A DNA stretch of 64,000 nt from an uncultured Bdellovibrionales bacterium (GCA_964505555.1 CAZDIO010000102.1:13355-77354), one strand, 5' to 3'. Numbered from the stretch's first letter, positions 31,447-54,457 are shown. Program-made: numbers and translations. Notes: generated by a model not told the origin, from the sequence alone.

Positions 31447-31485
31447 CTCCTAGCACTTCTCGTGCCAGGTTTTGTGATCAGCGTC

Positions 31486-33063: not shown

Positions 33064-33126
33064 TTGAACACAGAGTTTCACAGGGTTACACAGAGTAAAG
33101 ATTTTAAAATTCAACTCTGTGTTCAA
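33064..33126. repeat. Family A palindromic repeat, copy A1 (right arm shortened)
   Basis: ttgaacacagagtttcacagggttacacagagt aaagattttaaaattca actctgtgttcaa. The right arm lacks the internal gtaaccctgtgaaactct present in other copies. Confidence 0.8.
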
Positions 33127-36657: not shown

Positions 36658-38235
36658 CTAAACGCTACGATTCCTTTCTCGTTTTCTTTTCCAAGTTTCA
36701 AAGTCTACTACCGCAATTTTTTTTGCAAGCTCCTCACGAACACATCCTTCAACCGCTTCATGAAGACTTCTTCGATCAAGAGCGGTTTTTAAGCAGTTCA
36801 TCTTCTTTTCAACCTGATCATAGAGGTTTGAAAGAGACTCAGAAGAGAGTGTTTTTCGATAGCGATCGACTTCGGTAGAGAGGTATTCCTGATACTCTTT
36901 TTTCTCAACTGGATTGGCCTCTCCCCGCCCGCTAGAGATTGGGGCTTTTGGAAAGTCCCGCCCAGTATTTTTAAGGATTTTCTCTTCAAAACTCCGGGGA
37001 ATAATGAATTTATGTGGAGTTTCTACTGCCCGATAGAGAAAACCTACCCGATTTTTTGAGACTTTCGTATCATTTGTTTGCACAAGAAAATCGTAATAGG
37101 AGATGATTTTATCAACTTGTAAAAGTTCTGCGGCGTTTTTTTCACTGAGCAGCCGTTTTGCTTGCGAGAGATGAATGCCTCGCGAAAGCAGAGCTTCAAT
37201 GGCTCCTTGTCGTTGTGATTCTAGATCAGTAGAACTGCGTTGGGAGGAATCTTTTTGAAAAACAGGGGGCGAAGAAAGGATAAAGCTTCCTTGCTGCGTG
37301 TGATTTCTAGGAAGAGGGCTCTCTGTTTGCTGGAGATGTTTTTGAGATACGATCTCTTTTCCGGAATGAAAGCGCACAACGGTCTCTACGCCCCTACCTG
37401 CAAACTCATAACTTGAGAGAAACCCAAGCGCTTTTAACTCCTCGCACGCTGGTTCAATTTGTTGCTTAATCTGGGAGATGTATTGATAACTTCGAGAAAG
37501 TCCTAACTTCTCAAAGGCAAAGGTAACAAGTGGTTTTTCAATACTTGATTTGTAGTAAAAATGCTTATCAAGATACCGGTAGAGCCTTCGACTTACAGCA
37601 CTTCGAAGTGAGAAATAAAGGGTTAAATCAAGCTTTTTTATAAACCCTGATTTAAAAGAATGAAAAAGTGCCTCACTCCAAATAAAATAACTCTTTGAAG
37701 CCTCAGCCCCAGAGAGGGCTTTGTTCCCTCGCCCATCGTTTATTTCGTAGGCATCGATAATTCCGAAATTTCTTGTTTGATAGGCTTTTGAAGCATTATC
37801 AAAAAACGCATTTGCTGCCCGAATTCGAACCCCGCTTAAGCGATCAAGTGATTTTGTAAGGCGGGAGTAGCTTCGCCCTTCTGTGGTCCAGCGTAAGATT
37901 CCTAAAAGCTCATACCGGGTAAAATATACCTTTCGGTTTCGAAACCCTTGATCCATCGTTAACCGCATCAAGCCAAGAAGGACATCATCATCCGTAGCGG
38001 TGGGGAGTCCAAACTTGTCTGCCCCGGTAATAATCCACTGGCGTTCAATCACCTCCCCACTGGGGAGCCGTTGGTTGTCACGAAACTCAAGGGTTTTTAC
38101 CTTTGAGTTTGTGCGTGTCGAGAGAACCGCGAGGGGAAACTCTGCAAGGTTCATCTCATCACGTGAGGTAAGCACTACCTCGGATGAGGAGACTTCACGA
38201 TCTTCGGCTCTTTGTTGGTAGAGGGTTTGCTGCAT
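36658..38235 (-). CDS. Replication-initiator-like (RepA-type) protein
   Basis: 525 aa. N-terminus MNLAEFPLAVLSTR... resembles plasmid replication initiator A family N-termini. Basic C-terminus. Lies next to an AT-rich noncoding region and parAB. Assignment tentative. Confidence 0.4.
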   Translation of the reverse strand: MQQTLYQQRAEDREVSSSEVVLTSRDEMNLAEFPLAVLSTRTNSKVKTLEFRDNQRLPSGEVIERQWIITGADKFGLPTATDDDVLLGLMRLTMDQGFRNRKVYFTRYELLGILRWTTEGRSYSRLTKSLDRLSGVRIRAANAFFDNASKAYQTRNFGIIDAYEINDGRGNKALSGAEASKSYFIWSEALFHSFKSGFIKKLDLTLYFSLRSAVSRRLYRYLDKHFYYKSSIEKPLVTFAFEKLGLSRSYQYISQIKQQIEPACEELKALGFLSSYEFAGRGVETVVRFHSGKEIVSQKHLQQTESPLPRNHTQQGSFILSSPPVFQKDSSQRSSTDLESQRQGAIEALLSRGIHLSQAKRLLSEKNAAELLQVDKIISYYDFLVQTNDTKVSKNRVGFLYRAVETPHKFIIPRSFEEKILKNTGRDFPKAPISSGRGEANPVEKKEYQEYLSTEVDRYRKTLSSESLSNLYDQVEKKMNCLKTALDRRSLHEAVEGCVREELAKKIAVVDFETWKRKRERNRSV

Positions 38236-39130: not shown

Positions 39131-39913
39131 GTGGCCATGGCAAAAGTCTTTGCAATAGTGAATCAAAAGGGGGGAGTTGGAAAAACTACCACCGCTGCAA
39201 ATTTGGCCGCCGCGCTATCTGAGCGAGGTCAAAAAGTGCTTGTTATTGATCTTGATGCTCAAGCAAATCTCTCTGCTCATTTTGGAAGTTCCGTAGATGA
39301 TCAGAGTGAGCAGCTTACAATGTATGATGTGCTCAGGCACAACGCCCCGATTGAAAAAGCAATAATAAACCTCTCTTCGAACTTAAGTATCGTTCCTGCA
39401 AGCCTCCTACTAAGTGCTGCAGATTTAGAGCTTGGTGGTGTTATCGGTCGTGAGTTACTTCTTAAAAAAGCTCTTCAACCGGTAATTGATGACTATGATT
39501 ACACGATCATTGATTGCCCACCCTCACTGGGGATGCTCTCCCTCAATGGGCTTGTTGCTGCTTCACGAGTTATCGTTCCTGTTCAAAGTGAGTTTTTAGC
39601 CCTTCACGGCGTAAGGCAGCTTCTTGATACGATTGACCAGGTACGAAGTGCCTACAACCCCTTACTTGCTGTGGGTGGAGTTCTTCTCTGTCTTCATGAT
39701 TCAAGAAGGAGACTGGCGCGGAGTGTTGCCGATACGGTGCGCGAATATTTTGGAGATCTTGTTTTTGAAACTGTCATTCGCACAAACGTTGCCCTTGCTG
39801 AAGCACCTGCCCAGGGGGACTCAATTTTTCAATACGACCGCCGCTCAAGCGGTGCTGAAGATTATGCTAGCCTTGCAGAGGAGATACTAAGCCGTGGCAA
39901 AAAAGAAGGTTAA
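39131..39913 (+). CDS. parA: ParA/Soj-family partition ATPase
   Basis: 260 aa. Deviant Walker A NQKGGVGKTTT. Confidence 0.9.
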   Translation: MAMAKVFAIVNQKGGVGKTTTAANLAAALSERGQKVLVIDLDAQANLSAHFGSSVDDQSEQLTMYDVLRHNAPIEKAIINLSSNLSIVPASLLLSAADLELGGVIGRELLLKKALQPVIDDYDYTIIDCPPSLGMLSLNGLVAASRVIVPVQSEFLALHGVRQLLDTIDQVRSAYNPLLAVGGVLLCLHDSRRRLARSVADTVREYFGDLVFETVIRTNVALAEAPAQGDSIFQYDRRSSGAEDYASLAEEILSRGKKEG

Positions 39914-40814
39914 ATTCAGTGTAAACCCACTTCTTGGGGGACCAAGTCTTGCATCACGAGCAAAGATGGGGAGCCCTTATCGGGAGCTTTTAATCGACGA
40001 GATCGATTTTGATCCTGATCAACCGCGACGAGTATTTAATGAAGAGCGACTTCAAGAGCTCGCTGATTCAATTAAAGAACACGGAATCATCTCACCAATA
40101 CTTGTTAAAGTAACAGAAGGGGGAACCTATAAGCTTGTATCTGGAGAGAGAAGACTTCGTGCCTCAAAAATTGCTGGATTAGAATCGATCCCCGCAGTTA
40201 TTGAAGACGATGATAAAAGTAGTGATGTAACCCTTCCTAAGCAGCTTGTAGAAAATCTCCAACGAGAAGATCTCACCGTAATGGAGAGGGCGATCGCTAT
40301 TGGCCAACTACGAGATGCTTACAAATTGAGCATTCGTGAGATCTCCTCAAAGCTTTCCATTTCAAAAGGACTCGTTCAGAGAAGCCTTGAAGTTCTCGAT
40401 CTCCCAGACGATCTTCAAGCAGCGTTAATAAACGGTGCCTCAGAGACGAAGATTCTCGTTTTAGCGAAAGTTTCGAATCGTGAATTGAGAAAAGAATTTA
40501 TCGCTCAACTTGATAATTTCACCCGAGCACAACTTGAAGAAGAGGTAGATCGGGTTACGACACTCTTAAATGGCGACAAAGAAGAGGTGTACCACGGTGG
40601 TACACCTCGTAGTCGAAAAAATGGAAGAAATAAACTTTCCCCTCAAGATGAGCAGTTAATTAATGATTTAAAAAACAAACTAGGAACAAGAGTTTCTTTA
40701 ATGCGCAGTCGTGGCAAAGAGGGGCAGGGGAAGCTGATGATCGAGTTCTATTCAGATAACGATCTAAGCGAGATCTTTCGACGACTTTGTCGAACCGCTA
40801 GCGATTCTCTTTAA
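39894..40814 (+). CDS. parB: ParB/Spo0J-family partition protein (GTG start)
   Basis: 306 aa. ParB box ISPILVK...YKLVSGERRLRAS. 20-nt overlap with parA. Confidence 0.85.
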   Translation: MAKKKVKFSVNPLLGGPSLASRAKMGSPYRELLIDEIDFDPDQPRRVFNEERLQELADSIKEHGIISPILVKVTEGGTYKLVSGERRLRASKIAGLESIPAVIEDDDKSSDVTLPKQLVENLQREDLTVMERAIAIGQLRDAYKLSIREISSKLSISKGLVQRSLEVLDLPDDLQAALINGASETKILVLAKVSNRELRKEFIAQLDNFTRAQLEEEVDRVTTLLNGDKEEVYHGGTPRSRKNGRNKLSPQDEQLINDLKNKLGTRVSLMRSRGKEGQGKLMIEFYSDNDLSEIFRRLCRTASDSL

Positions 40815-43781: not shown

Positions 43782-43869
43782 TGAACACAGAGTTTCACAG
43801 AGATCCACAGAGTAAAGAAAAAAGCTTTTAGATTTAACTCTGTGTAACCCTGTGAAACTCTGTGTTCAA
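43782..43869. repeat. Family A palindromic repeat, copy A2 (left arm variant agatc for ggtta)
   Basis: tgaacacagagtttcacagagatccacagagt aaagaaaaaagcttttagattta actctgtgtaaccctgtgaaactctgtgttcaa. Confidence 0.85.
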
Positions 43870-44020
43870 ACCTACTAAATGAAACGACGCTAGTTGAAAC
43901 CACCTCTATTTGACCCATATAAACCCTAGGGAACTTAAGCTTTAAATCATCGATAAAGATTATGAGGGCAATTCGTCTCTCATCACTATTACGAAATAGA
44001 CTTCAAATAGGGAGGCCATC

Positions 44021-45376
44021 ATGATCGTTACTGATTCACCATTTCGCACGCAATATAGCGCCAATAACGTTGCAATTCGAAACGGAGCAACAAGTACTAC
44101 GCCGGCGCAATTTAGTAATCTTTCTTTTCTTCGATCGACACCACCTTCTTTACCTTCAAGCAATCTCCTTGCCCCATCAAGTAGCGGAGGATTTGTTTCT
44201 CAAGTGCAGTCGATGCTGCAGCAAGTTTCGGTGCTGATGGATCTCATCGGTGCCGCAAGACAATCAGATCAAAGTGCTGGGGTTAGTCTCCTCGATGGGG
44301 CGAAACTCTTTTCTCAAAATGTTTCTCAGGAGCTTTTTAACCTTCAGACAAGAGGAGGTATCGGAGGGGTTTTTGATGCTGTTCCGACCTCTATAGATAG
44401 TCTTGGTACTGCCGCTCAACAGTACGTTCTTGGGAACCTCAAGCGAGAGTTTTTTGACGCAGTTGGTGAGGCGTTTGGGGTGGATGTTTCACAGCTTTCT
44501 GTAACAGATCTTGCCAATTTGGCTTATGAAAGCGTTTTTGGAGAGGGAACATCGCTCTCTAGTACCCTCTCAGATGGGGTGGCAGGAATCTTCTCCGGTC
44601 AGGATCCCTTTGTAGCAGGAGAACTTAGTGGAGAAATTGGTGGAGAAATAAGCACTGAAGTAGGCGGGGCAACTTCAGGAATTGGCCAATTTACAGGCGC
44701 TTTAGCAACCGCGTATTCTCTCTATGGAATAATTAATGACTGGGGAAAGAGCACCCCAGCCATGGGTGCGATGCGAGGTGCTACGGCTGGAGCGTACATC
44801 GGGAGTATTATTCCAGGAGTTGGAACTCTTATCGGAGGTGCCATCGGTGGGGTTGCGGGGGCGATCTCTGGATTGTTTCATAGTGGGAAGCATAAAAACC
44901 AGATTCAACGCGATCAGGTTCGAGAGTTTTTAAGAAATGCCCAAATTATCGATTCAGATAACTCCCTTCAGTTAGCAAATGGTGAACGTTTTGATATCGG
45001 AAAAGATGGAGGTGCTCGCTATCTTGGACTTGACGGAGTTGAGAGACGACCCTACGTGACTGACCCTTCAAATCCACTTACCGCTGAGGCGATAGGGCTT
45101 GTAAATCCGTTAGCAATAATTCTCACCGGAGGTGATCCTGGACTTTCTTCAGCTTTTGCAGGGTATTTTAGTAATGCCATCGTCAGTAACGCACAAGATC
45201 TCGAAGGCGTCCGCCAAAATGCCTTGGCGATATTCTCAAAATTTCAGGTTACCCCAGAGCAATTGATCGCTGGCTTAGAAAATCTTACTGCCTCCGGCAA
45301 AATCCCCCCAGAAGATTTTGCTGCATACGCAAACGGGGTAAGAACTCTCCTTGAAGGGTTTTCTTCACCTTCATAA
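44021..45376 (+). CDS. Hypothetical protein with central glycine-zipper hydrophobic segment; candidate secreted/translocator-like protein
   Basis: 451 aa, no signal peptide. Ser/Thr-rich N-terminus. Segment AGAYIGSIIPGVGTLIGGAIGGVAGAISGLF (GxxxG repeats). Flanked by family A repeats. Confidence 0.5.
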   Translation: MIVTDSPFRTQYSANNVAIRNGATSTTPAQFSNLSFLRSTPPSLPSSNLLAPSSSGGFVSQVQSMLQQVSVLMDLIGAARQSDQSAGVSLLDGAKLFSQNVSQELFNLQTRGGIGGVFDAVPTSIDSLGTAAQQYVLGNLKREFFDAVGEAFGVDVSQLSVTDLANLAYESVFGEGTSLSSTLSDGVAGIFSGQDPFVAGELSGEIGGEISTEVGGATSGIGQFTGALATAYSLYGIINDWGKSTPAMGAMRGATAGAYIGSIIPGVGTLIGGAIGGVAGAISGLFHSGKHKNQIQRDQVREFLRNAQIIDSDNSLQLANGERFDIGKDGGARYLGLDGVERRPYVTDPSNPLTAEAIGLVNPLAIILTGGDPGLSSAFAGYFSNAIVSNAQDLEGVRQNALAIFSKFQVTPEQLIAGLENLTASGKIPPEDFAAYANGVRTLLEGFSSPS

Positions 45377-45390
45377 GAAGCGTTAGATTA

Positions 45391-45479
45391 TTGAACACAG
45401 AGTTTCACAGGGTTACACAGAGTTTGAACTATCTTACTTATCCCACACTCTGTGTAACCCTGTGAAACTCTGTGTTCAA
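45391..45479. repeat. Family A palindromic repeat, copy A3 (followed by ccttccttttttgc extension)
   Basis: ttgaacacagagtttcacagggttacacagagt ttgaactatcttacttatcccac actctgtgtaaccctgtgaaactctgtgttcaa, then ccttccttttttgc. Confidence 0.9.
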
Positions 45480-45546
45480 CCTTCCTTTTTTGCTCAAAAA
45501 GTTTAAAAACATCTTTACTGCTATATCGAATAGTGATATTAATCTA

Positions 45547-45708
45547 GTGGTGATTCGATCGTACAAAAACATTGGCACACGTGATATTGCTGAGAATTCG
45601 AAAGCAGCGCGGCGACTGTTGCCGCAACCATTTAATGCTCAGTATCGCATTTGCTTTCTTTGGAATGGCATTGATGCTGACGCAGTTGAAATAGTGGATT
45701 ATCACTGA
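45547..45708 (+). pseudogene. higB: HigB-like toxin remnant (internally truncated RelE/ParE-superfamily killer protein)
   Basis: N-terminus VVIRSYKNIG... and C-terminus YRICFLWNGIDADAVEIVDYH match the HigB ends (…RVIFRFEDGDAYDVDYIDYH). The central ~40 residues are missing. The longer ORF from 45472 begins inside repeat A3. Confidence 0.5.
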
Positions 45709-45732: not shown

Positions 45733-46026
45733 ATGTTGAAACCTAGGCGTGTTATAGCAGTGCATCCTGGAGAGATGCTTGAAGAGGTTCTTAAACAGAA
45801 CAAGATTAGCCAATCTTCCCTTGCCGCTCATCTCGGAGTTACTCAAGCAAAGATCAACGAAATCTGTCGTGGTAAGCGAGGAGTGACGCCAGATATGGCG
45901 ATGAAGTTCGGTAAAGCTTTTGGACAGAGCCCAATGTTTTGGATAAATATCCAAAAAAATTGGGAGATGAGCCAGCTCGATGAATCTGATTACAAAGACA
46001 TACAACGGATAAAATGTCGTGCGTAG
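45733..46026 (+). CDS. higA: HigA-family antitoxin (XRE-type HTH)
   Basis: 97 aa. HPGEMLEEVLKQNKISQSSLAAHLGVTQAKINEICRGKRGVTPDMAMKFGKAFG matches the HigA/VapI HTH. Confidence 0.85.
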   Translation: MLKPRRVIAVHPGEMLEEVLKQNKISQSSLAAHLGVTQAKINEICRGKRGVTPDMAMKFGKAFGQSPMFWINIQKNWEMSQLDESDYKDIQRIKCRA

Positions 46027-46142: not shown

Positions 46143-46232
46143 TTGAACACAGAGTTTCACAGGGTTACACAGAGTGTGGGAATAATTAAGATAATTTAAA
46201 CTCTGTGTAACCCTGTGAAACTCTGTGTTCAA
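46143..46232. repeat. Family A palindromic repeat, copy A4 (followed by ccttccctttttgc extension)
   Basis: ttgaacacagagtttcacagggttacacagagt gtgggaataattaagataatttaa actctgtgtaaccctgtgaaactctgtgttcaa, then ccttccctttttgc. Confidence 0.9.
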
Positions 46233-46482
46233 CCTTCCCTTTTTGCCTGTGGGCATGTGGAGTTACCGATTGCTCTAAGAAAAATCATTGATGAAGGCCA
46301 ATTAAGCTGAGGCAAATTGCCTCAGTAGATTCAAAATGCATCAGCGATCATTATTCTAACCCTCTGAAACTGTTCAGATCTTCTTTCACACCAAAGTTGG
46401 CATGACCTTGCAATAGAAACGGTAGGTTCTTGCTACAGGTTCTTTTTGTTTTTTAGTCAGAAAACTTAGCAAGGAGGACTTT

Positions 46483-47196
46483 GTGGTGAAAGGGACAACG
46501 GAAAAATTAACTGAAGAGCAGATTCCCCTCGTAATTGAAAATATTCTTTATGCAAAAAAACTGGCGAGGCAGTTTTATCAACAACGAAGCCACTTCGGTT
46601 TCGATGTTGAGGATTTTGAAGGCGCAGCATTGTTTGGATTATGTGACGCTGCAAGGAGGTTTGAGCCTGATAAGACACTTCATTTTAGAACATTTTCCTA
46701 TTTTCGCATTCGGGGTGCGATGTATGATCTGCTGCGACATGGGGGGGGAATTTCGAAGAAACACTTCAAGTGTTTCATTGAAAATCGAAATCAAACGGGA
46801 GAGGGGACAAAACCTCGAGCAGAGGAAGAAGGGAGCCTCCCCTATTCATTTGCAAGAACTGCTGAGGAGTTATCGAGCATTATTGCCACGATTGAAGAGA
46901 TCGATATCGCTGTGCATGTCAGCACGGACAGCGAGATTCCTGAACTCAGCTACGCACGAGACCTAAATCCTGAAGAGATCAATACCATTCGTGCAACCCG
47001 GTCCTATATTAGAAAACTTATCTCTCAACTTCCCACTGAACAACGAACCGTAATTGAACTTCGCTACTACAATGGCGCTACCTTTGATGAAATTAGCGCA
47101 AATCTCGGTGGGCACTCACGGAGTTGGGTTTCACGAACCCATGTTCGAGCTCTTGATAATTTGCGAGGGATGATTCTTAGCGAAAGGAGAGTGTAA
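46483..47196 (+). CDS. Sigma-70-family sigma factor, FliA/sigma-28-like
   Basis: 237 aa. Region 2 (FEGAALFGLCDAARRFEPDKTLHFRTFSYFRIRGAMYD) and region 4 HTH (VIELRYYNGATFDEISANLGGHSRSWVSRTHVRALDNLR). RBS AAGGAGGA. Stop overlaps the sctJ start (TAATG). Confidence 0.8.
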   Translation: MVKGTTEKLTEEQIPLVIENILYAKKLARQFYQQRSHFGFDVEDFEGAALFGLCDAARRFEPDKTLHFRTFSYFRIRGAMYDLLRHGGGISKKHFKCFIENRNQTGEGTKPRAEEEGSLPYSFARTAEELSSIIATIEEIDIAVHVSTDSEIPELSYARDLNPEEINTIRATRSYIRKLISQLPTEQRTVIELRYYNGATFDEISANLGGHSRSWVSRTHVRALDNLRGMILSERRV

Positions 47197-48131
47197 TGAC
47201 ATCCTCAAAATGGAAAGGAATTTTTCTTGCGCTCGTAGCGTTTTTTCAGGTCAGTTGTAAAGAGACCGTTCTTCATAACTTAGATGAGGTGCGAGCCAAT
47301 CAGGTAAAAGTAACACTAGAGAAACGAGGAATTACTGCGCAAAAGCTTTTTGAAGGGAGCGGATGGAGTATTCGAGTCAAGCGTGCTGACGAAACAGAGG
47401 CACTCTCGATTCTTGAAGAAAGCAGAGTTCTCAAACGGAATCTCCGAACCCCGATAGAACCACCAAAGGGGCTTATTCCAAGCCGAGAGGAACGAGCATC
47501 ATTTTCAGAACGGCAACTGGCGGCAAGTTTAGAAAGTACTCTTGAGCGCTTACCCTATGTGCTAGAAGCTCGAGTTCATCTGAACTTAAATGCCGAAGAG
47601 AACCTTCAAATGGTTTTGCCAAAAGAGGGCCATACGGGAAGTGCTCTGATTGTCACCGATGATCATATGCCTGATCATTTAGCAATTCAAAAATCTCAAG
47701 TACAACAACTCATTGCAGGAGCATCAGGAGTAAACCCACAATCAATCTCGGTAGTAATCGCCAAAGCAAGTGCTGAAAACTACGCAGAGCCACAGATCCA
47801 TAAAGTAGCAAAGCCAGTAGAGACGACGAAAAAAGATACTCCCTCCCATTCTCCATCGTGGATAAAAAAGCTGATAGTGCATGCTCGACAGTATCAAACA
47901 TTTTTAATCTATCTCGCTGGGGTATTAATTGCAGTTCTTGCACTCCGATTGATTTTTCGAAAAAACCCATTTCGAAGTGAGCAAACAATACCGAGTTTTC
48001 AAATGCCTCCTCTGAAGAACTCAAAAAATACCGTCTCCTCTGGTGTTCTGGTCAACGGTACCCAACACGGAAATGGCAGTCAGTTTAAACTGCAACCAAA
48101 CAAACAACATGAAACATTGGAGGTGTACTAA
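47196..48131 (+). CDS. sctJ: Type III secretion inner-membrane ring lipoprotein SctJ (YscJ/PrgK/CdsJ family)
   Basis: 311 aa. Signal plus Cys (FFQVSCKE), then LDEVRANQVKVTLEKRGITAQKL...ETEALSILEESRV (YscJ-like secretin/ring-building motif pair). Single C-terminal TM (FLIYLAGVLIAVLALRLIF). Confidence 0.75.
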   Translation: MTSSKWKGIFLALVAFFQVSCKETVLHNLDEVRANQVKVTLEKRGITAQKLFEGSGWSIRVKRADETEALSILEESRVLKRNLRTPIEPPKGLIPSREERASFSERQLAASLESTLERLPYVLEARVHLNLNAEENLQMVLPKEGHTGSALIVTDDHMPDHLAIQKSQVQQLIAGASGVNPQSISVVIAKASAENYAEPQIHKVAKPVETTKKDTPSHSPSWIKKLIVHARQYQTFLIYLAGVLIAVLALRLIFRKNPFRSEQTIPSFQMPPLKNSKNTVSSGVLVNGTQHGNGSQFKLQPNKQHETLEVY

Positions 48132-48132
48132 G

Positions 48133-48408
48133 ATGATGGCTTCTTCTTTAAATATCCATTGCTCACGGCGATGTGAATTGCTTCTCTGCTTAAGTTATCT
48201 CCTTACCCCAGAAGCAGTTACTTCCATCGCCTCAAAATTAGCAACCAATCGCGATCAAGCCGCGAGAAACCTTGCTCAGGCGATGATGTCACTCTCTCCT
48301 CAGTATGTACGAGACCTGAGTTTAAAAACACTTGCCAATGCCGGAATGAGTATCGGTAATTATAAAAACCAAACGCATGCTCACGGGGTAGCCTCGAGGA
48401 AGTTGTAA
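48133..48408 (+). CDS. Small T3SS-locus protein (hypothetical)
   Basis: 91 aa from ATG immediately after the sctJ stop. The longer ORF from 48043 overlaps sctJ. No motif. Confidence 0.3.
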   Translation: MMASSLNIHCSRRCELLLCLSYLLTPEAVTSIASKLATNRDQAARNLAQAMMSLSPQYVRDLSLKTLANAGMSIGNYKNQTHAHGVASRKL

Positions 48409-48409
48409 A

Positions 48410-49333
48410 ATGAAAGAGAACGACAACAATACGTTTGTTGCTGTAATCAGAGCAAAACTTCAAGCAGGGGGGCGCACTCTCGCATCAACGGAAAATGCAC
48501 CACTGCATACACTACGATTTCGGATGATGGCAAATCAATTTCTCTCTATTCTTTCTTCGTTACTTTCTTTACATCTTACAAAGGAAGTTCATATCTCACT
48601 TGATGAGTCATCAACCTTTCCTCGATCACCTGAAGAGGGGTGCGATGGAGAACAGGTGATCGTGAATCTTCGAGTGTATCATCAAAATATACAACTTGTT
48701 TTACCCGGAGAGCTTGTTCATGACCTTGGTGCTTACGTCCTTCATAAGATGCCAACAGCGGTAATCTCTTCTCTCACGAACGAAGAGATTACCGCTGTGA
48801 GTTTCTTAATCGCTTCAGTCCTTGCTGATCGAGCGCTCTCGAAACAACGAATCTACCTCTCTTCAGTGCACAAAAAATGTAACGAAGAAAAACAAGAGAC
48901 CTCAAAACGCGATCGAGAACAAAATCAGCAACTCTGTGTATCAGCCACGGTTGATAAGAGTCACTACCGAGTGCTCGTACGTATCCCCGAGGAGCTTGTT
49001 GGGCGTTTAGAAAGTTATGGGAAATTAATCTTTCATAGGGAACAAACAACACGTCTTCTTTCAAGGGTGTTTGCGCAGTGGTCGCTGCAACTTCGACTCA
49101 ACGTAGGATCGCTTCACGGTCTTACTGCGCTAAAAGAAGGTCAACGTTTTCCACTTACAGAGTCTACGGGGGCACTTTTTTCTCCAAGCCCTCTCTGTGG
49201 TGAAGAAGGGGTAGCGGTTGAAATACTTTCTGCAAGTATTCCTGGACTTTTAAAATTACGAATTAGGGGAGAAAAAGATTTATATCAACGCACTCAATGG
49301 AGGAATAATGACCAGAGAAGATGCCCACAGTAA
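48410..49333 (+). CDS. sctQ: SctQ-like protein, N-terminal part of a split cytoplasmic-ring/sorting-platform protein (contains a SpoA-like C-terminal segment)
   Basis: 307 aa. C-terminal LQLRLNVGSLHGLTALKEGQRFPL...VAVEILSASIPGLLKLRI fits the SpoA/FliN-fold pattern. Overlaps the next SpoA gene by 26 nt. Confidence 0.45.
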   Translation: MKENDNNTFVAVIRAKLQAGGRTLASTENAPLHTLRFRMMANQFLSILSSLLSLHLTKEVHISLDESSTFPRSPEEGCDGEQVIVNLRVYHQNIQLVLPGELVHDLGAYVLHKMPTAVISSLTNEEITAVSFLIASVLADRALSKQRIYLSSVHKKCNEEKQETSKRDREQNQQLCVSATVDKSHYRVLVRIPEELVGRLESYGKLIFHREQTTRLLSRVFAQWSLQLRLNVGSLHGLTALKEGQRFPLTESTGALFSPSPLCGEEGVAVEILSASIPGLLKLRIRGEKDLYQRTQWRNNDQRRCPQ

Positions 49334-49673
49334 TGAATTGTTTAGAGAATTTACAAATCACCATACCCAGACGATGAACCAAAATGGGGAATCGGCTCGT
49401 GAAATAAAGCGAGAAAGCGGCTCATTGCTTACATTGCAGCAAGCAAAATTTCTTTCAGAGATACAGGTTGGGCTTGATGTCGAGATCGGAAAACTCTCCA
49501 TCCCAGCAGATAAACTCATTGATCTCCTTCCTGGGCAAACATTTGAGTTTGAGTTTGATCCGCTTCTAGAGGTTTCGCTCTCACTGGGAGGAGAAAAGAT
49601 AGCAAAAGCTAAATTCATGCTTGATGGAGAGACGCTCTATCTTGAAGTGAGCTCAGTAAAAACCACTTTATGA
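49308..49673 (+). CDS. SpoA/FliN/SctQ-C domain protein (separate C-terminal SctQ gene)
   Basis: 121 aa. VGLDVEIGKLSIPADKLIDLLPGQTFEFEFDPLLEVSLSLGGEKIAKAKFMLDGETLYLEV is the classic SpoA domain. Confidence 0.7.
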   Translation: MTREDAHSNELFREFTNHHTQTMNQNGESAREIKRESGSLLTLQQAKFLSEIQVGLDVEIGKLSIPADKLIDLLPGQTFEFEFDPLLEVSLSLGGEKIAKAKFMLDGETLYLEVSSVKTTL

Positions 49674-49768
49674 CAAAACCGATCGGAAACCATTGATGGA
49701 AATAAACGATAATACGTACGAGACCTAAAAACTGTTGTGAATTAATTGAATTAATAAGGAGAAATAAC

Positions 49769-50071
49769 ATGTCAGATGTAGCCTCGGCGCTTTTTAATAT
49801 CGGAAGTGTTGTGCGTGAAACCGCAAGTTACTTACCAGAACCTGCAACGCAAGGCGTTAGTATGTTTTCTGACGTTATGGATATCGTAAAAAGCCTCACC
49901 GGTAATGGTGTTGGTGGAGTTCCTACCGAGATCGGCGGGGACTTTATGGAACTTCTTGAATTGCAGATTCAAACTCAGCTTGAGCTTCAGACGGTATCAA
50001 TGGTGTCAAACGTTGAGAAGTCTGAACACGAATCAAAGATGGCTGCGATTCGAAACGTTCGCGTAAACTAA
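49769..50071 (+). CDS. Small T3SS-associated protein, needle/inner-rod (SctF/SctI)-like candidate
   Basis: 100 aa, helical. C-terminus ...KMAAIRNVRVN. Position between sctQ and sctV. RBS AAGGAGA. Confidence 0.3.
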   Translation: MSDVASALFNIGSVVRETASYLPEPATQGVSMFSDVMDIVKSLTGNGVGGVPTEIGGDFMELLELQIQTQLELQTVSMVSNVEKSEHESKMAAIRNVRVN

Positions 50072-50099
50072 AACAAGAAAATTAGATTGGAGAAATACT

Positions 50100-50417
50100 A
50101 TGGCCGTATCAAGTGTAACCACCGCTGCACCTCAAACAGCCGAAGGAAAAGCAGCAAAGAGTGAAGGTGAAGATAAAAAGGAGCGCACCTCTCAGGTGAA
50201 CCAATGGGGAAAAGAGATCCTTGATTTAAAAACCTCAAATGCGCGTCTTCTTGAGATCGTTGAAGCAGCAACAAAAGAGGCAAATGATAGCCCCTGGGTG
50301 ATGAACATGATTGAAAAGTTCATCGGTCAACGGGCGGTAAAGGGTGCCGCTGTTTCAAACATGATTCAAGCAATCATGGAAACGATGAAACGAATCGCTA
50401 ATAATATTGGGCGTTAG
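50100..50417 (+). CDS. Small T3SS-associated protein, needle/inner-rod (SctF/SctI)-like candidate
   Basis: 105 aa. C-terminus VSNMIQAIMETMKRIANNIGR resembles needle-family C-termini (…IIQNFR-like). RBS GGAGAAA. Confidence 0.3.
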   Translation: MAVSSVTTAAPQTAEGKAAKSEGEDKKERTSQVNQWGKEILDLKTSNARLLEIVEAATKEANDSPWVMNMIEKFIGQRAVKGAAVSNMIQAIMETMKRIANNIGR

Positions 50418-50428
50418 TTTCTGATTCC

Positions 50429-52507
50429 ATGAGGCAGCACGCCAAAATACGCGATATTTTACTCCCTATCGCTGTTGTTGCGGTAGTAGGGATGATGATT
50501 TTTCCTTTACCATCAGGAGTGCTCGATGCGCTCCTGATGGTAAATATCGCGTTTTCTTTAGTTCTTCTGGTAAGTTCTGTTTATCTTTCTGAACCAAGAC
50601 ACTTTACCTCCCTTCCAGCGATCCTTCTCCTCTCCACTCTTTTTCGCTTAGGATTAAACGTTTCAACAACACGACAGATTCTTGGTCATGCCGAGGCACC
50701 TGAGATTATTGTTGCCTTTGGTTCTTTTGTTGTAACTGGAAGTTTAATTGTCGGTGCGGTGGTATTTTTGATTATCACCGTAGTGCAGTTTCTAGTGATC
50801 ACCAAGGGGGCAGAGAGAGTTGCTGAGGTTGCCGCGAGATTTACCCTCGATGCGATGCCTGGAAAACAGATGGCGATTGATGCTGATGTGCGTTCAGGTT
50901 CCATTAGTGTTGAAGAGGCAAAGGAGCGAAGGCTTGAATTACAACAGGAATCAAAACTCTACGGTGCCCTTGATGGGGCGATGAAGTTTATCAAAGGGGA
51001 CGCAATTGCTGGTTTGATCATCATCGTTATTAATATCACCGCAGGCCTTGCTGTGGGGGTAACACAGATGGGGCTTAGTTTTTCAGAGGCTCTTCATAAG
51101 TACACCCTCTATACGATTGGTGATGGCCTTGTTTCACAACTTCCGGCACTTCTTGTCTCTGTGGCAGCGGGGATTGTAATTACCAGGGTTGAAAATAAAA
51201 GTGGGGCTTTTCTCGGAAGAGATATCTTTGTTCAACTCGGTGCAGAACCTCAAGCCGTGGCCACCAGTGGAGGAGTGCTTCTTCTTCTCTCACTTGTTCC
51301 TGCGTTGCCAGGAATTCCTTTTTTTGTTGTTGGGGTAATTCTTCTTTCTCTTGCAAGAAAGACAAGTCTTCGACAGAAAAGCTCTGAACAGGGAAGGACA
51401 GATTCAGAGTTTCGACCAAAGGTATTTTCTCCACTCGTTTTAGTTCTCTCCCCCGGAGCTGCCGTTCTTCTTCAACGGCTCGGCACCCTTCCCAAGGCGA
51501 TTCATCAATTACGAAGCGAGATGTTTCAAAAATGGGGGGTGATTGTTCCCGATGTCCAATTTGATCTAGAAAAAGGGGAGAGTGAGATCGCTCTCTGGGT
51601 TACTCTTCATGGAGTGCAAGTTGATTCGCTTCGTGGAGATGAAAAAGATTCTGGAGTTTTTGTTGAGAAAACTATTCAATGCTTACAACAGTCCATTGAA
51701 GCTCATCTTTCTGAACTCATCGATGATACGCAAACAAGAATGCTTCTTGAGGTTCATCAAAGCGTTGCCGAGGATCTGATCAATAGTGTCATTCCTGAGA
51801 TGTTGAGTATTACGGCGCTCACGACAATTCTTCGGCAGTTAGTTATTGAGGGGATCCATATTCGTCAGATGCGTTCGATCCTCCAAGCCGTAGCAGAATC
51901 TCATCTTCGCGAGCAGGAGATGAGCCTTTCACTCCCGAGTGCTTCCGGTGCAAATTCACAACGTCTGCAACTTTTAGGGAAGAAAGAAGGAGCGACAAGG
52001 CAAGGACGAGAGCTCCTTGCTGATGTGAGAATCTCTTTAAAGCGAGTTATTTCAAAACAGATCACGGATGATAATTGGAATTTACAAGCCTTCATCTGTG
52101 CGCCTCTTTTGGAACAGATATTTTCCTCTCCCGTTGCCCTTGGAGCGCCCATTGAACCGGGAATACGTGAAAGCATTTTGAATCAGATTAATAAAGCATT
52201 CTCTACACAAAATACCCCCACAAAAGTTCTCTTAACTTCTAAACAGTCACGAACAAATCTCTTCAACCTGATTCGTTTTGACTGTCCAATGGTCTCAGTT
52301 ATCGCAATTGATGAGCTGGCTCCTGAAGTGACGCTCAGTATTCTTGGGGAGATAAAATTAGAAACTGGAGAGACAGCAGACAGTGAGGAGCAGGAAGGGG
52401 GCAAGAGTAAGAAGATTCAGGAAGAGACTCAAGCTAAACCGGAGCGGAGAGTTTTTCGAAATGTTTCTGAAGTGAGAACAAAAGATTCTCAGAAGATCGC
52501 AGCATAA
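50429..52507 (+). CDS. sctV: Type III secretion export-gate protein SctV (LcrD/InvA/CdsV family; injectisome-type rather than FlhA)
   Basis: 692 aa. FLVITKGAERVAEVAARFTLDAMPGKQMAIDAD, AMKFIKGDAIAGLIIIVIN and TIGDGLVSQLPALL match the LcrD/YscV variants (SLDAMPGKQM, FVKGDAIAGLIII, GDGMVSQVPALL) more closely than the FlhA variants (VLDGMPGKQM, FVRGDAIAGILIM). Confidence 0.85.
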   Translation: MRQHAKIRDILLPIAVVAVVGMMIFPLPSGVLDALLMVNIAFSLVLLVSSVYLSEPRHFTSLPAILLLSTLFRLGLNVSTTRQILGHAEAPEIIVAFGSFVVTGSLIVGAVVFLIITVVQFLVITKGAERVAEVAARFTLDAMPGKQMAIDADVRSGSISVEEAKERRLELQQESKLYGALDGAMKFIKGDAIAGLIIIVINITAGLAVGVTQMGLSFSEALHKYTLYTIGDGLVSQLPALLVSVAAGIVITRVENKSGAFLGRDIFVQLGAEPQAVATSGGVLLLLSLVPALPGIPFFVVGVILLSLARKTSLRQKSSEQGRTDSEFRPKVFSPLVLVLSPGAAVLLQRLGTLPKAIHQLRSEMFQKWGVIVPDVQFDLEKGESEIALWVTLHGVQVDSLRGDEKDSGVFVEKTIQCLQQSIEAHLSELIDDTQTRMLLEVHQSVAEDLINSVIPEMLSITALTTILRQLVIEGIHIRQMRSILQAVAESHLREQEMSLSLPSASGANSQRLQLLGKKEGATRQGRELLADVRISLKRVISKQITDDNWNLQAFICAPLLEQIFSSPVALGAPIEPGIRESILNQINKAFSTQNTPTKVLLTSKQSRTNLFNLIRFDCPMVSVIAIDELAPEVTLSILGEIKLETGETADSEEQEGGKSKKIQEETQAKPERRVFRNVSEVRTKDSQKIAA

Positions 52508-52528
52508 TCTTAGCGCGCTGTATGGGAG

Positions 52529-53146
52529 GTGAAAATGAATATATCTTATAGAAAAATCTCTCTTCATCATTTAGCACTCTGGAGTTTTGTCTGTTTCATT
52601 CTTTTCTTGAGTACTGGCTGTATTTACCGAAATAAAAATAGCCTTACGGCTCATGAAGCCGTAACTCGGGAAACAAAGATGAAGTCACTCCTTGCTTTTA
52701 GTGTTTCACAGCTTCGAATCGGAGATGAAGTGGCACTTGATCGCGCCTATGCAACGCTTGAGCTTGCACGAGAGTTAGACCCAAACGATGCACGAGTGTT
52801 TGATGGTTTAGGAAGTGTGGAATGGCGTCGCGAAGGGTATAAGTTAGCGGAGTTCTACTTTAAAAAAGCGGTATCTCTTGATCCTAACTATTCTCGTCCG
52901 TATGCACATCTTTCGCTTGTTGCAGAAAGAAATGGTGATTATCAGGCAGCAAAAGAGCTCCTTCTAAAATCTCTTGAACTTAATCCTCTTAATTACCGGG
53001 CAAGAAACAACTACGCCGCCCTTCTTGTTCGTTACGGAAATCAAACAAGTAATGAACAAACGGCGTACTATGAGTTTCTAAAAGTTGCCCGAGGTGCTTC
53101 AAAAGAAGATCCCGTTCTTCAGTATAATCTAGGTCGGTTTGAGTAG
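52529..53146 (+). CDS. TPR-repeat lipoprotein
   Basis: 205 aa. Signal plus LSTGC lipobox. At least three TPR units (AYATLELARELDPNDARVF..., AEFYFKKAVSLDPNYSRPY..., AKELLLKSLELNPLNYRAR...). Confidence 0.6.
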   Translation: MKMNISYRKISLHHLALWSFVCFILFLSTGCIYRNKNSLTAHEAVTRETKMKSLLAFSVSQLRIGDEVALDRAYATLELARELDPNDARVFDGLGSVEWRREGYKLAEFYFKKAVSLDPNYSRPYAHLSLVAERNGDYQAAKELLLKSLELNPLNYRARNNYAALLVRYGNQTSNEQTAYYEFLKVARGASKEDPVLQYNLGRFE

Positions 53147-53183: not shown

Positions 53184-53271
53184 TTGAACACAGAGTTTCA
53201 CAGGGTTACACAGAGTAAAGAGAAGAGATTTTAAATTTAACTCTGTGTAACCCTGTGAAACTCTGTGTTCA
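53184..53271. repeat. Family A palindromic repeat, copy A5
   Basis: ttgaacacagagtttcacagggttacacagagt aaagagaagagattttaaattta actctgtgtaaccctgtgaaactctgtgttca. Confidence 0.9.
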
Positions 53272-53329
53272 TACCAGAAGCTAAATGGACCTACTCTAGC
53301 CTTACAATTCAAAACTTGCTAAGTATTCA

Positions 53330-54337
53330 TTGGAAATCCCTCTTCGGATATTTATGCAAGATCCTCAATCAACGATAAATGTTTCTTCAATAGATTACTC
53401 GCCAACGGTAGGGATAGTAATTATCAATTATAACTGCGCTCCTTATACGCTAGACTGCCTGCGCACAGTAGAGAAGCTTTCCTATACAAATTATTTTGTA
53501 GTGATCATTGATAACAACTCCCCAGATCTCTCCGGCTACTACTTACAACAAGCGCTCAAAGATAAGCGGGTAACCGTCATTATCAACCCTGAAAACTGTG
53601 GCTTCGGGGCAGGAAACAATATCGGTATTCGTCATGCGTTAGAAGGGGAGGCAGAGTATATCTGGCTTTTAAATGCAGATACCTTTGTTCATCCTGAGGC
53701 ACTCTCCCAACTTGTAAAACAAGCAAACGAATATCCTGAGGTTGGAGCGTTTGGAAGTAAGGTTCTGTATGAGGAAGAACCTTTGTCTCCTAAAAAAGAA
53801 GAGGGAAAACCGATAATATGGAGTGCTGGAGCCTCGATAGATTTTTCTAAAGAAGAAGTAAAGATGTTTGGTTCCCATGAAGAAGATCGAGGGCAGCACG
53901 ATCAGCTCCGCGAGTGCGAATACATTCCCGGATGCTCACTTTTCTTTCCTGCAAAGGTGATCTCAGAAGTTGGCTACCTGCCGGAAGAATACTTTATGTA
54001 TTTTGAAGAAACAGAGTGGTGTACGAGGATGAGAAAAAAGCATTTCAAACTGCTCTATGTTCCAGAAAGTGTAGTTTGGCACCGGTTTCAAGATAACAAA
54101 ATGCAAACCCCTTTTGGAGTGTATTATTACAACAGAAATAATCGTTACTTCTGGTTTCGTCAGGGAGATATCTTTAAAAAAATCGCGATGATTGTGCGAA
54201 CACTTTTTAAAGACCTTCCCCGTGCACAGAGAGCGTTTAAAAAAGCCCCCGATGAAGCTTCTCGCGAAATCTTCTCTGCTCACCGAGCTAGCTGTCTTGA
54301 TTTTCTTTTTGGGAGGTTTGGGAAGAGACGGTATTGA
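53330..54337 (+). CDS. Glycosyltransferase family 2
   Basis: 335 aa. VGIVIINYNCAPYTLDCL...VVIIDNNSPD, DxD-like NADTF, and GCSLFFPAKV. Start may be downstream of 53330. Confidence 0.8.
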   Translation: MEIPLRIFMQDPQSTINVSSIDYSPTVGIVIINYNCAPYTLDCLRTVEKLSYTNYFVVIIDNNSPDLSGYYLQQALKDKRVTVIINPENCGFGAGNNIGIRHALEGEAEYIWLLNADTFVHPEALSQLVKQANEYPEVGAFGSKVLYEEEPLSPKKEEGKPIIWSAGASIDFSKEEVKMFGSHEEDRGQHDQLRECEYIPGCSLFFPAKVISEVGYLPEEYFMYFEETEWCTRMRKKHFKLLYVPESVVWHRFQDNKMQTPFGVYYYNRNNRYFWFRQGDIFKKIAMIVRTLFKDLPRAQRAFKKAPDEASREIFSAHRASCLDFLFGRFGKRRY

Positions 54338-54379: not shown

Positions 54380-54457
54380 TGAACACAGAGTTCAACAGAG
54401 GAAAGAAAACAAACCAATAATTTTAACTCTGTGAAACCCTGTGAAACTCTGTGTTCA
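54380..54457. repeat. Family A palindromic repeat, copy A6 (diverged)
   Basis: gaacacagagttcaacagagg aaagaaaacaaaccaataatttta actctgtgaaaccctgtgaaactctgtgttca. Confidence 0.75.

Follow-up and report, generated by a model that had tools for sequence, protein, structure and literature searches.

We have analyzed a group of type III secretion genes in a 64-kb stretch of DNA, hereafter the window, from an uncultured Bdellovibrionales bacterium (GCA_964505555.1, CAZDIO010000102.1:13355-77354); all positions are counted from the first letter of this stretch. On its + strand, positions 46483-53146 hold a single compact operon of nine closely packed open reading frames (ORFs), which we call the cassette. 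These ORFs, as called on the 64-kb window, encode in order a sigma factor, an SctJ-type ring protein (J), a small protein (s1), the two presumed parts of a C-ring protein (Qn and Qc, the latter with an SPOA domain), two further small proteins (s2 and s3), an FHIPEP export-gate protein (V) and a TPR lipoprotein. The coordinates of these genes and of the features at their borders are collected in Table 1, where related loci are designated, as throughout, by an L and a number. The stop codon of the sigma gene overlaps the start codon of J in the sequence TAATG (GTGTAATGAC), and at the other junctions the genes overlap slightly or are separated by 1 nt or by 11-95 nt. The GC content of the cassette (0.43-0.45) is the same as that of the remaining window. 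An earlier reading of this DNA, referred to here as the original prediction, had described the locus as a partial injectisome, that is, a type III secretion system of the non-flagellar kind (NF-T3SS). All of the ORFs that it listed are real and lie on the + strand where it had placed them, and the overlap that it reported between the sigma and sctJ genes was confirmed in the sequence.

Table 1. Genes and sequence features of the cassette and its borders, in order along the window
Feature	Position	Strand	Assignment and remarks
REP-like palindrome	46143-46232		about 90 bp, 33-nt perfect arms; 250 nt upstream of the sigma gene; upstream boundary
Conserved motif TGGCAY-N3-4-TTGCA	46398-46412	+	about 70 nt before the sigma start codon
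Sigma factor	46483-47196	+	FliA/WhiG (sigma-28-like), 237 aa, divergent; Sigma70_r2, r4; TIGR02479
J	47196-48131	+	SctJ-type inner-membrane ring lipoprotein, 311 aa; TIGR02544; lipobox Cys21
s1	48133-48408	+	about 91 aa; motif CSxRCELLLAL; start most likely 48133
Qn	48410-49333	+	307 aa, fast-evolving; N-terminal SctQ/FliM-like part by position
Qc	49308-49673	+	FliN/SctQ-C-like SPOA protein; FliMN_C/SPOA domain
Sigma-28-type promoter GGAAAC-N16-CGATAA	49685-49712	+	in the 95-nt gap, 57 nt upstream of s2
s2	49769-50071	+	100 aa, SctI/SctF-like; C-terminus SNxEKSxHExKMAAIRNxR
s3	50100-50417	+	105 aa, needle (SctF)-like; orthologs match T3SS_needle_F
V	50429-52507	+	FHIPEP export-gate protein (SctV/FlhA homolog), 692 aa; FHIPEP E 8e-164
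TPR lipoprotein	52529-53146	+	205 aa; TIGR02521, 45 bits, below cutoff
REP-like palindrome	53184-53272		directly after the TPR gene; likely terminator, downstream operon boundary
GT2 glycosyltransferase	53330-54337	+	after the TPR gene also in L081, L082, L083, L091; not in L084, L086

The cassette is conserved in gene order among a large set of relatives. More than 120 relatives of the gate protein were found at 39-57% identity, and the order recurs, with the ORFs intact, in at least 30 other loci whose FHIPEP proteins are 38-57% identical to that of the window. Seven long contigs carry this order (L081-L086 and L122; contigs of up to 3.26 Mb), which runs there as sigma, J, a small ORF (in most loci), a Q-like ORF, SPOA, one or two small ORFs, V and TPR. 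Every locus begins its cassette with the sigma gene, and wherever the sequence extends to the end of the cassette, the TPR gene closes it. With s2 as the seed, a metagenome scan yielded 31 more loci, nearly all of which have the same gene neighbors, and an exhaustive HMMER search in 1.84 billion representatives found 206 clusters (50% identity) of the s2 family. The gene order is kept in about 25 metagenome loci as well as in L081-L086 and L122. The s2 family is real but rare, and the conserved arrangement of the genes is not due to chance. The source labels of the relatives are metagenome-assembled genomes of Bdellovibrionota, Oligoflexia, Bdellovibrionales and 'Deltaproteobacteria', and the assignment of cassette carriers to the Bdellovibrionota is based only on the names attached to the homologs in this way.

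The gate protein V scored 513 bits with the SctV model hrcV (cutoff 692) and 475 bits with the FlhA model TIGR01398 (cutoff 772), in both cases below the cutoff; its best PDB sequence match was to YscV (372 bits, vs. 305 for FlhA). Its position was examined in a neighbor-joining tree of 116 FHIPEP proteins (614 columns, 50 bootstraps), for which the references were 80 FlhA/SctV loci picked by similarity to the gate protein (universal DAMPGKQM motif). The tree splits three ways: into the cassette family as a clade of its own (50/50 bootstraps); an injectisome clade (47/50) with sequences from Erwinia, Bradyrhizobium, Polyangiaceae, Archangium, Chlamydiae, Desulfovibrionaceae, PVC (Planctomycetes, Verrucomicrobia, Chlamydiae) bacteria and betaproteobacteria; and a flagellar clade (50/50) with sequences from Firmicutes, Actinobacteria, Proteobacteria, Nitrospirota and others. 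Over the membrane domain the family is at the same distance from SctV (0.87) as SctV is from FlhA (0.87), and its distance from FlhA is 0.96; over the cytoplasmic domain the distances of the family are saturated with respect to both. When diagnostic positions were defined by at least 70% conservation within each clade, seven residues were common to the family and SctV and one to the family and FlhA; all seven of the SctV type fall within the FHIPEP loop, residues 119-185. An alignment of 103 gate-protein sequences has 55 invariant columns, and the AlphaFold2 (AF2) model of V made with this alignment reached a pLDDT (predicted local distance difference test) of 88.9, with a complete cytoplasmic FlhA_C/SctV_C fold. 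The modeled cytoplasmic domain is about equally like that of B. subtilis FlhA (TM-score 0.79) and YscV (0.71-0.75), at about 20% identity. V appears to lean towards SctV yet to belong to a third clade outside both SctV and FlhA. Its original identification as SctV is upheld in this leaning, seen in the YscV match and the 7:1 ratio of diagnostic residues, but not in its clade or in its score, which falls below the hrcV cutoff. Abby & Rocha argued for a root on the flagellar side (PMC3459982), and with that root the cassette family would, provisionally, be sister to all of the injectisome SctV proteins sampled.

The sigma factor at the head of the operon had its best NCBIfam match to TIGR02479 (FliA/WhiG; 83.8 bits, cutoff 189.6), residues 25-230 aligning with positions 10-222 of the 224 in the model, and its regions 2 and 4 scored above their cutoffs in Pfam. 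It also matches the FliA ORFs that follow flhA in about 37 reference loci of flagellar type. The intergenic gap upstream of s2 contains the only match in the window to GGAAAC-N16-CGATAA, where 0.03 were expected. The sigma-28 consensus is TAAA-N15-GCCGATAA; read as GAAA-N17-CGATAA, the motif has the spacing and the -10 core of this consensus. In 11 of 34 loci, GGAAAC-N16/17-CGATAA with no more than one mismatch occurs in the 260 nt before s2, vs. about 0.05 hits expected from its background frequency in 3.1 Mb of reference loci; some loci have it within the last part of the coding region that comes before. Two loci, L092 and L106, have the motif in front of the sigma gene as well, and it lies upstream of the FliH/SctL-like gene of a separate ATPase module (described below) in L092, L120 and, weakly, L119. 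It was not found upstream of the flagellin genes of the window, L085 and L122, the FliG gene of L120 or FliK-like genes. The flagellin gene of the window has a canonical sigma-54-type -24/-12 element (TGGCACGAGAAGTGCT, 31452-31467, - strand, 208 nt before the start), and no sigma-28-type motif was found upstream of it. This distribution, with the motif present at cassette, sigma and ATPase-module genes and absent at flagellin genes, suggests that the cassette sigma factor is a dedicated regulator of the secretion machine and not the flagellin sigma factor; GGAAAC-N16/17-CGATAA would be the sequence that it reads. A dedicated or autoregulated sigma factor had been proposed originally from the overlap with sctJ, and the promoter inside the operon, before the sigma gene of two relatives and before the FliH/SctL-ATPase module agrees with that proposal. 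The classical form of the promoter, TAAA-N16-18-CGATAA, has two matches in the window (0.55 expected), neither of which belongs with the cassette or with the flagellin gene.

Upstream of the sigma gene itself, the motif TGGCAY-N3-4-TTGCA is present in one copy and at the same position in the window, L081, L082, L083, L086, L088 and L091, with only three other matches in 117 loci. It was considered as a canonical sigma-54 promoter and rejected: both half-sites are perfect, but the distance from GG to GC, 8-9 nt, varies among orthologs and falls 1-2 nt short of the 10 nt of such promoters. A response-regulator-like gene of about 250-280 aa lies a few kb downstream of the cassette in relatives (L083 14097-14936, L091 8736-9485, L110 3874-4677, L122 17611-18459) and is not in the window. 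A Response_reg domain was identified for L083 and L122, and the ORFs of L091 and L110 resemble ORFs of about 30 reference loci. Such a gene could relate to the direct-repeat-like motif upstream of the sigma gene.

The ring protein J aligns end to end with the SctJ model TIGR02544 (residues 10-194 on positions 6-191 of 193), with 77 bits and an expected value (E) of 1.4e-21 against a cutoff of 162 bits. It has a C-terminal transmembrane segment with a variable basic tail, and the lipobox cysteine is invariant across 8-9 orthologs. The FliF model gave a weak match in the L092 ortholog alone, with 24 bits vs. 89 for SctJ. To judge from these matches J is an SctJ-type ring protein and not FliF, without the two transmembrane segments and the RBM3 architecture of the latter, which agrees with its first description as a lipoprotein with a C-terminal transmembrane segment. 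The small gene s1 had no match in Pfam, NCBIfam or PDB; an ORF of 59-92 aa follows sctJ in most of the long loci examined.

Qn had no family match and no PDB match, and a word-index search returned only the query; modeled with AF2 without an alignment, it reached a pLDDT of 35. As a candidate SPOA1 domain it was rejected, the hhalign probability against the SPOA profile being 3%. Eight loci (L088, L091, L099, L100, L103, L105, L106 and L112) carry in its place a fused single ORF of 270-390 aa that ends in SPOA, and from its position and these fused orthologs Qn would be the N-terminal part of an SctQ/FliM-like C-ring protein. The split between Qn and Qc is common to the window and its closer relatives L081, L082, L083, L084, L086 and L096; because the fused form is found in many distant loci, the split of the window is a derived state and not a sequencing artefact. 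The fused ORFs of distant loci agree with the split sctQ of the original prediction. The true start of Qc may be at an internal ATG, 49374. A profile of Qc matched FliN (E 7e-10), HrcQB (1.4e-7) and the C-terminal part of YscQ (2e-4).

The most conserved small protein of the cassette is s2, which is also the only small subunit present in every locus. It is paralogous to s3 over the C-terminal helix (hhalign 94.8%, E 5e-8). Tests of s2 as FliE or SctI by homology, using profiles of 27 and 148 sequences and a member-by-member scan, matched no Pfam or PDB family, which leaves paralogy to s3 as its one supported relationship. By analogy, and in view of its presence in every locus, s2 may be an inner-rod (SctI-like) protein. 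For s3, five of 14 orthologs match the Pfam family T3SS_needle_F (PF09392), with a best E of 6.4e-5, the window copy not being among them, and the family profile gave repeated weak PDB matches to a chain of the SsaG complex, PrgI, MxiH, YscF and a needle fragment. The two small ORFs before sctV noted originally do exist and encode paralogs that appear SctF/SctI-like, s3 being the needle-like one. The TPR protein has a lipobox (G30-C31) that is invariant across 8-9 orthologs, and it resembles the PilW/PilF class of pilotins.

Some loci add to this picture of the small genes. A basal subclade has an ORF of about 105 aa after the TPR gene (L092 5473-5805, L122 12436-12750, L085 12875-13195; 39% identity and E 7e-17 between L092 and L122), which is absent from the window and its close relatives. 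Two metagenome loci (L116 2759-6082 and L117 258-3581) have an FHIPEP gene that groups with the injectisome clade near Myxococcota-type sequences, followed by an s2-like gene of 127 aa and a TPR protein of 140 aa, an arrangement which suggests that NF-T3SS of a more conventional kind can have s2-like subunits too.

The rest of the window was surveyed by a Pfam scan of every ORF of at least 150 aa across the 64 kb. Outside the cassette no ORF of this size belonged to a T3SS family except the flagellin gene, and five ORFs had no family match. SctC, D, L, N, R, T and U, as well as flagellar export and basal-body genes, were not found among these ORFs, and the statement that sctC, sctN, sctRSTU, sctD and sctL are absent from the window stands. 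Within 10 kb on either side of eight long loci there was no SctRSTU, SctD, SctN/L or secretin gene, and no translocon genes were found in or near these loci; for the secretin and SctD, the window and the Pfam lists of seven flanked loci were covered. FliG, FlhB, FliPQR, FlhF/G, FliE and FlgBC were found neither in nor beside the cassette in any locus. When the ORFs of the family loci were compared by BLAST with those of the 80 FlhA/SctV reference loci, only sigma, J, V, SPOA and one ATPase matched. The ATPase module was seen in L092, whose gate protein is 38% identical to V: four genes lie there 0.9-5.6 kb downstream on the opposite strand, encoding a FliK/SctP-like protein, an S49 peptidase, a 449-aa ATPase and a FliH/SctL-like protein, the FliH/SctL-ATPase module being 3.6 kb from the gate gene. 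The ATPase scored 453 bits with SctN and 442 with FliI (cutoffs near 605-620), and the stator protein had similar scores with the YscL and FliH models. The FliH/SctL-ATPase pair occurs alone in L118, L119 and L120. Since the promoter motif is common to the cassette and to this module, and neither matches a known branch, a scattered layout of the secretion genes is plausible; the comparison with Chlamydiae drawn in the original prediction is an analogy only. The remaining gate proteins SctRSTU, not seen in or near the cassette loci, would have to be encoded elsewhere or borrowed.

Flagellar genes are found near the cassette in several loci, more often than we would have anticipated. In the window a typical flagellin gene of 287 aa (30396-31259, - strand) is located upstream of the cassette at a distance of 15 kb. 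L085 has FlgE and a flagellin gene, and L092 has the FliH/I/K-like genes. In L122 a 624-aa 'giant' flagellin with an FG-GAP insertion (12761-14635, - strand) lies 0.3 kb downstream of the cassette, and HemB lies upstream of it, as in the window. Such neighbors fit either descent from a flagellar neighborhood or a present flagellar role. The original prediction had placed the locus as an injectisome and not as a flagellar export apparatus; in the window the SctV and SctJ models do outscore the flagellar ones, but with flagellar genes near four of about 11 loci a flagellar connection is conceivable.

The ends of the operon are marked by copies of a dispersed REP/MITE-like element (repetitive extragenic palindrome/miniature inverted-repeat transposable element) of about 90 bp, which consists of two perfect 33-nt inverted arms (TTGAACACAGAGTTTCACAGGGTTACACAGAGT) and a loop of 17-24 nt. 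In addition to the two copies in Table 1, the element occurs at 33069-33095, 43786-43864, 45391-45479 and 54427-54453; ten arm matches occur in the 64 kb, with 0 expected by chance. Those examined are mostly intergenic, and they flank both the cassette and a 451-aa gene. The two copies in Table 1 delimit a transcription unit that matches the limits first assigned to the locus. The 451-aa gene (44021-45376, + strand) has 64 nt upstream of it a sigma-28-type motif with one mismatch (43929-43958), of which about 0.8 hits are expected per window, so that this hit is not significant alone. Its product has a Ser/Thr/Pro-rich N-terminus, by eye unlike a signal peptide, and a central glycine-zipper segment, and it had no homolog in the related loci or PDB. 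As a candidate secreted substrate it is a weak lead, and the motif hit may be due to chance. Between two palindrome copies just upstream of the cassette lie a HigA-family antitoxin (45733-46026; TIGR02607, 82.8 bits, above cutoff) and, preceding it, a 78-aa ORF (45472-45708) that has no family match and is possibly its toxin. Downstream of the cassette are glycosyltransferases and housekeeping genes. The GT2 glycosyltransferase that comes first is a conserved downstream neighbor and possibly part of the secretion system.

Elsewhere in the window, positions 1-26904 hold a large cluster for surface polysaccharide and sugar modification, with three DegT-type aminotransferases, a Wzy-like polymerase, a flippase, several GT2/GT4 glycosyltransferases, a split transketolase and methyltransferases; a sulfatase (22153-24027, - strand) comes after the polysaccharide genes. 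UbiD, the flagellin gene, an SLT transglycosylase and isocitrate dehydrogenase are also encoded. An RPA-type initiator (36658-38235, - strand), ParA (39131-39913) and ParB (39894-40814) are surrounded by the housekeeping genes icd, hemB, hemD and polyprenyl synthase, and suggest a module of the plasmid type, for replication and partition, on a chromid or in an integrated element. Rfam and tRNA scans of the window gave no matches.

On a modest balance of probability, we take the cassette for the core operon of a T3SS variant that has not been described before, is lineage-restricted, does without a secretin and has a FliA-type sigma regulon to itself. The operon would encode the membrane-proximal core of a distinct type III secretion machine, in which the SctJ-type lipoprotein forms the inner-membrane ring, the split SctQ/FliM-FliN-like pair the cytoplasmic sorting ring and the FHIPEP protein the export-gate nonamer. 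The s2 (SctI-like) and s3 (SctF-like) proteins are predicted to polymerise into an inner rod and a short needle, and the outer-membrane-directed TPR lipoprotein may take the place of a secretin as anchor or pilot of the distal end. An upstream promoter would express sigma, SctJ, s1 and Q. The sigma factor would then fire the internal sigma-28-type promoter and so raise the output of the genes for the secreted subunits, gate protein and TPR lipoprotein; it would also fire the promoters of the unlinked FliH/SctL and ATPase genes and, in some relatives, that of its own gene. Substrates are presumably secreted by such a machine, whose biological role may lie in contact with prey or host. Phylogenetically, a T3SS of this kind sits beside, and not inside, the known injectisomes. 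'Partial injectisome' thus remains apt for the SctJ and SctF-like genes, and not for the system as a whole, which lies outside the known injectisome families by its separate clade and by scores below the cutoffs. Abby & Rocha (2012) inferred an ancestral NF-T3SS that had SctF and preceded secretin recruitment (PMC3459982). It is conceivable, and we advance it with some doubt, that the cassette represents that intermediate, surviving in flagellated Bdellovibrionota: a third deep-branching T3SS lineage, sister to all known injectisomes, with flagellar-type regulation, a FliN-like C-ring, SctJ, an SctF-type needle and no secretin.

Several observations weigh against the reading of the cassette as a distinct T3SS variant. 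The machine is incomplete as seen, with no SctRSTU, SctD or secretin in the window or the flanks of 10 kb on either side; Qn and s1 are identified by positional guesses; and the link between the sigma factor and the promoter motif is inferred. The gate tree is a neighbor-joining tree with a reference set chosen by similarity, and the gate protein of L092 scores slightly better with the flagellar model (FlhA 503, vs. 495 for SctV). The SPOA protein also scores slightly better with flagellar models, and flagellar genes lie within 15 kb of the cassette in four of about 11 loci. L120 encodes a canonical FliG (286 bits, cutoff 226.7) 5 kb from its ATPase module. In a tree of the ATPases the module forms a separate clade, but the FliI references there come from Alpha- and Gammaproteobacteria only, so that a third clade is not separable from a local flagellar FliI and a flagellar origin of the ATPase module is possible.

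These points bear most directly on the alternative that the cassette is the lineage's own derived flagellar export or basal-body module, made up of FliA, FlhA, FliM/FliN and proximal rod proteins. A FliA/WhiG-like sigma factor homologous to the FliA encoded near flhA, an SPOA protein that matches FliN best, the L092 gate scores and the flagellin, FlgE or FliH/I/K-like genes near the cassette in four loci would all be explained in this way, and most partial T3SS loci are flagellar according to Abby & Rocha (PMC3459982). We nevertheless regard it as unlikely. A 311-aa ring lipoprotein that matches SctJ does not have the FliF architecture; orthologs of s3 match the needle family, with no match to FliE or a rod family; and FliG, FlhB, FliPQR, FlhF/G, FliE and FlgBC are absent from the cassette and its surroundings in every locus. 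The promoter motif is missing at the three nearby flagellin genes, that of the window having its sigma-54-type element, and the diagnostic residues of the gate protein stand 7:1 for SctV. Moreover, the FliG of L120 passes its cutoff, whereas the gate protein (475 vs. 772) and the L092 ATPase miss theirs widely. If the cassette belonged to a canonical injectisome scattered in the manner of Chlamydia, with its other parts elsewhere in the genome and effectors injected into eukaryotic cells, then the SctJ, SctQ-like, SctF/I-like and SctV-leaning genes and the unlinked FliH/SctL-ATPase module with the same motif in relatives would be accounted for, and scattered injectisomes are known in the Chlamydiales (PMC3459982). 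That every component falls far below the curated injectisome cutoffs speaks against such a system, as does a gate protein placed outside the clade of Ysc, Hrp/rhizobial, Myxococcota, Chlamydiae, Desulfovibrionaceae and PVC SctV; nor did some 200 kb of flanking sequence show a secretin or SctD, and injectisomes do not feature a FliA-type sigma factor or a TPR lipoprotein. This explanation, too, seems improbable to us.

A further view, for which the orphan flagellar-like genes of Chlamydia offer a comparison, is that the cassette is a stand-alone partial set without its own SctRSTU, and that it uses the FliPQR/FlhB gate of the flagellum for docking or else modulates export by the flagellum. SctRSTU were never seen near the cassette or the ATPase module, the hosts carry flagellar genes, and there are weak matches to the chlamydial FlhA-like model PRK05910 and the sigma-28 model PRK05911. 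We think this quite unlikely: an SctJ ring with SctI/F-like subunits implies that the basal body is a separate one, flanks of 20 kb are little to judge an absence by in a genome of 3-4 Mb, and we know of no T3SS that shares its export gate. That the cassette is a decaying remnant without function, as its incomplete gene set, divergent sequences and very fast-evolving Qn might indicate, is hardly credible given ORFs that are intact, an order kept in at least 30 loci, 206 clusters of s2, 55 invariant columns in the 103-sequence gate alignment, conserved lipoboxes and promoter motifs, and a GC content equal to that of the rest of the window.

The origin of the injectisome from the flagellum is a long-standing question, for which the sole candidate intermediate so far is the needle-less system of the Myxococcales. 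The cassette mixes the traits of both machines, joining an SctJ ring and an SctF-like needle to a FliA-type sigma factor and a FliN-like SPOA protein, with no secretin seen. If its placement holds, it would offer a second, independent window on the transition between flagellum and injectisome, and a living system in which to test it. Standard T3SS finders would miss the cassette because only three core genes are clustered and all of them score below the cutoffs, so that counts of such systems may be too low. With the motif GGAAAC-N16/17-CGATAA, the missing parts and substrates can be sought directly across whole genomes.

No published description of the cassette was found in literature searches. 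Among unusual systems already described, the closest is the NF-T3SS of the Myxococcales (the T3SS* of M. xanthus), which lacks both secretin and needle; SctI, SctJ, SctL, SctN and SctRSTUV are encoded there at a single locus (PMC3459982; PMC10433427). The cassette is similar in that it occurs in deltaproteobacteria-like lineages that include predators, has no secretin as seen in its loci, has SctJ and an SctI-like protein, and is conserved though seemingly incomplete; the Myxococcales system has likewise been discussed as an intermediate between flagellum and injectisome. It differs in having an SctF-like gene, a FliA-type sigma factor and a TPR lipoprotein, while RSTU, N and L are not in the locus; its gate protein lies outside the NF clade of Archangium and Polyangiaceae SctV, and its hosts also carry flagellar genes. 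With the canonical injectisome families (Ysc, Inv-Mxi-Spa, Ssa-Esc, Hrp, Rhizobiales and Chlamydiales; core set sctC/J/N/Q/R/S/T/U/V as in Abby & Rocha and TXSScan) it shares the SctJ lipoprotein ring, an SPOA-domain protein presumably of the sorting platform, putative needle- and rod-type subunits and the FHIPEP nonamer protein. Unlike these families, it scores below the cutoffs, has a separate gate clade, sigma-28-type control and a TPR lipoprotein, and has no secretin, SctD, gatekeeper, ruler or translocon in the cassette locus.

The presumed split C-ring protein and the apparently dedicated alternative sigma factor recall the Hrp1 system of P. syringae, and the HrcQB structure was among the SPOA matches of Qc. 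In Hrp1, SctQ is split into HrcQA and HrcQB, and HrpL drives both structural and effector operons; HrpL is an extracytoplasmic function (ECF) sigma factor and is not the first gene of a structural operon, and Hrp clusters are complete, including the secretin. The cassette sigma factor, in contrast to HrpL, is of the FliA type and is the first gene of its operon. Its apparent family, the sigma-28 spacing and CGATAA -10 of the promoter, the FliN-like SPOA protein and FHIPEP are shared with flagellar export and the FliA hierarchy, as would be the two-tier logic of early genes that include sigma and late genes that include the secreted subunits. The SctJ-type ring, the lack of FliG, rod, hook and Mot genes and the flagellin genes without the motif set the cassette apart from the flagellar system, and its gate protein differs from FlhA in its score of 475 against a cutoff of 772 and in sharing one diagnostic residue with it, vs. 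seven with SctV. Stone et al., in 2010, reportedly described orphan flagellar-like genes in chlamydiae, with FlhA adjacent to sigma-28 and with FliI and a short FliF elsewhere. The linkage of sigma-28 and FHIPEP, a short ring protein of the YscJ/FliF family, an ATPase encoded elsewhere and the absence of RSTU of its own are points of likeness with the cassette, and its similarity to the chlamydial models is weak (PRK05910, 237 bits, cutoff 670; PRK05911, 36 bits). Unlike the chlamydial set, the cassette joins SctF/I-like, SPOA and TPR lipoprotein genes to these in one operon.

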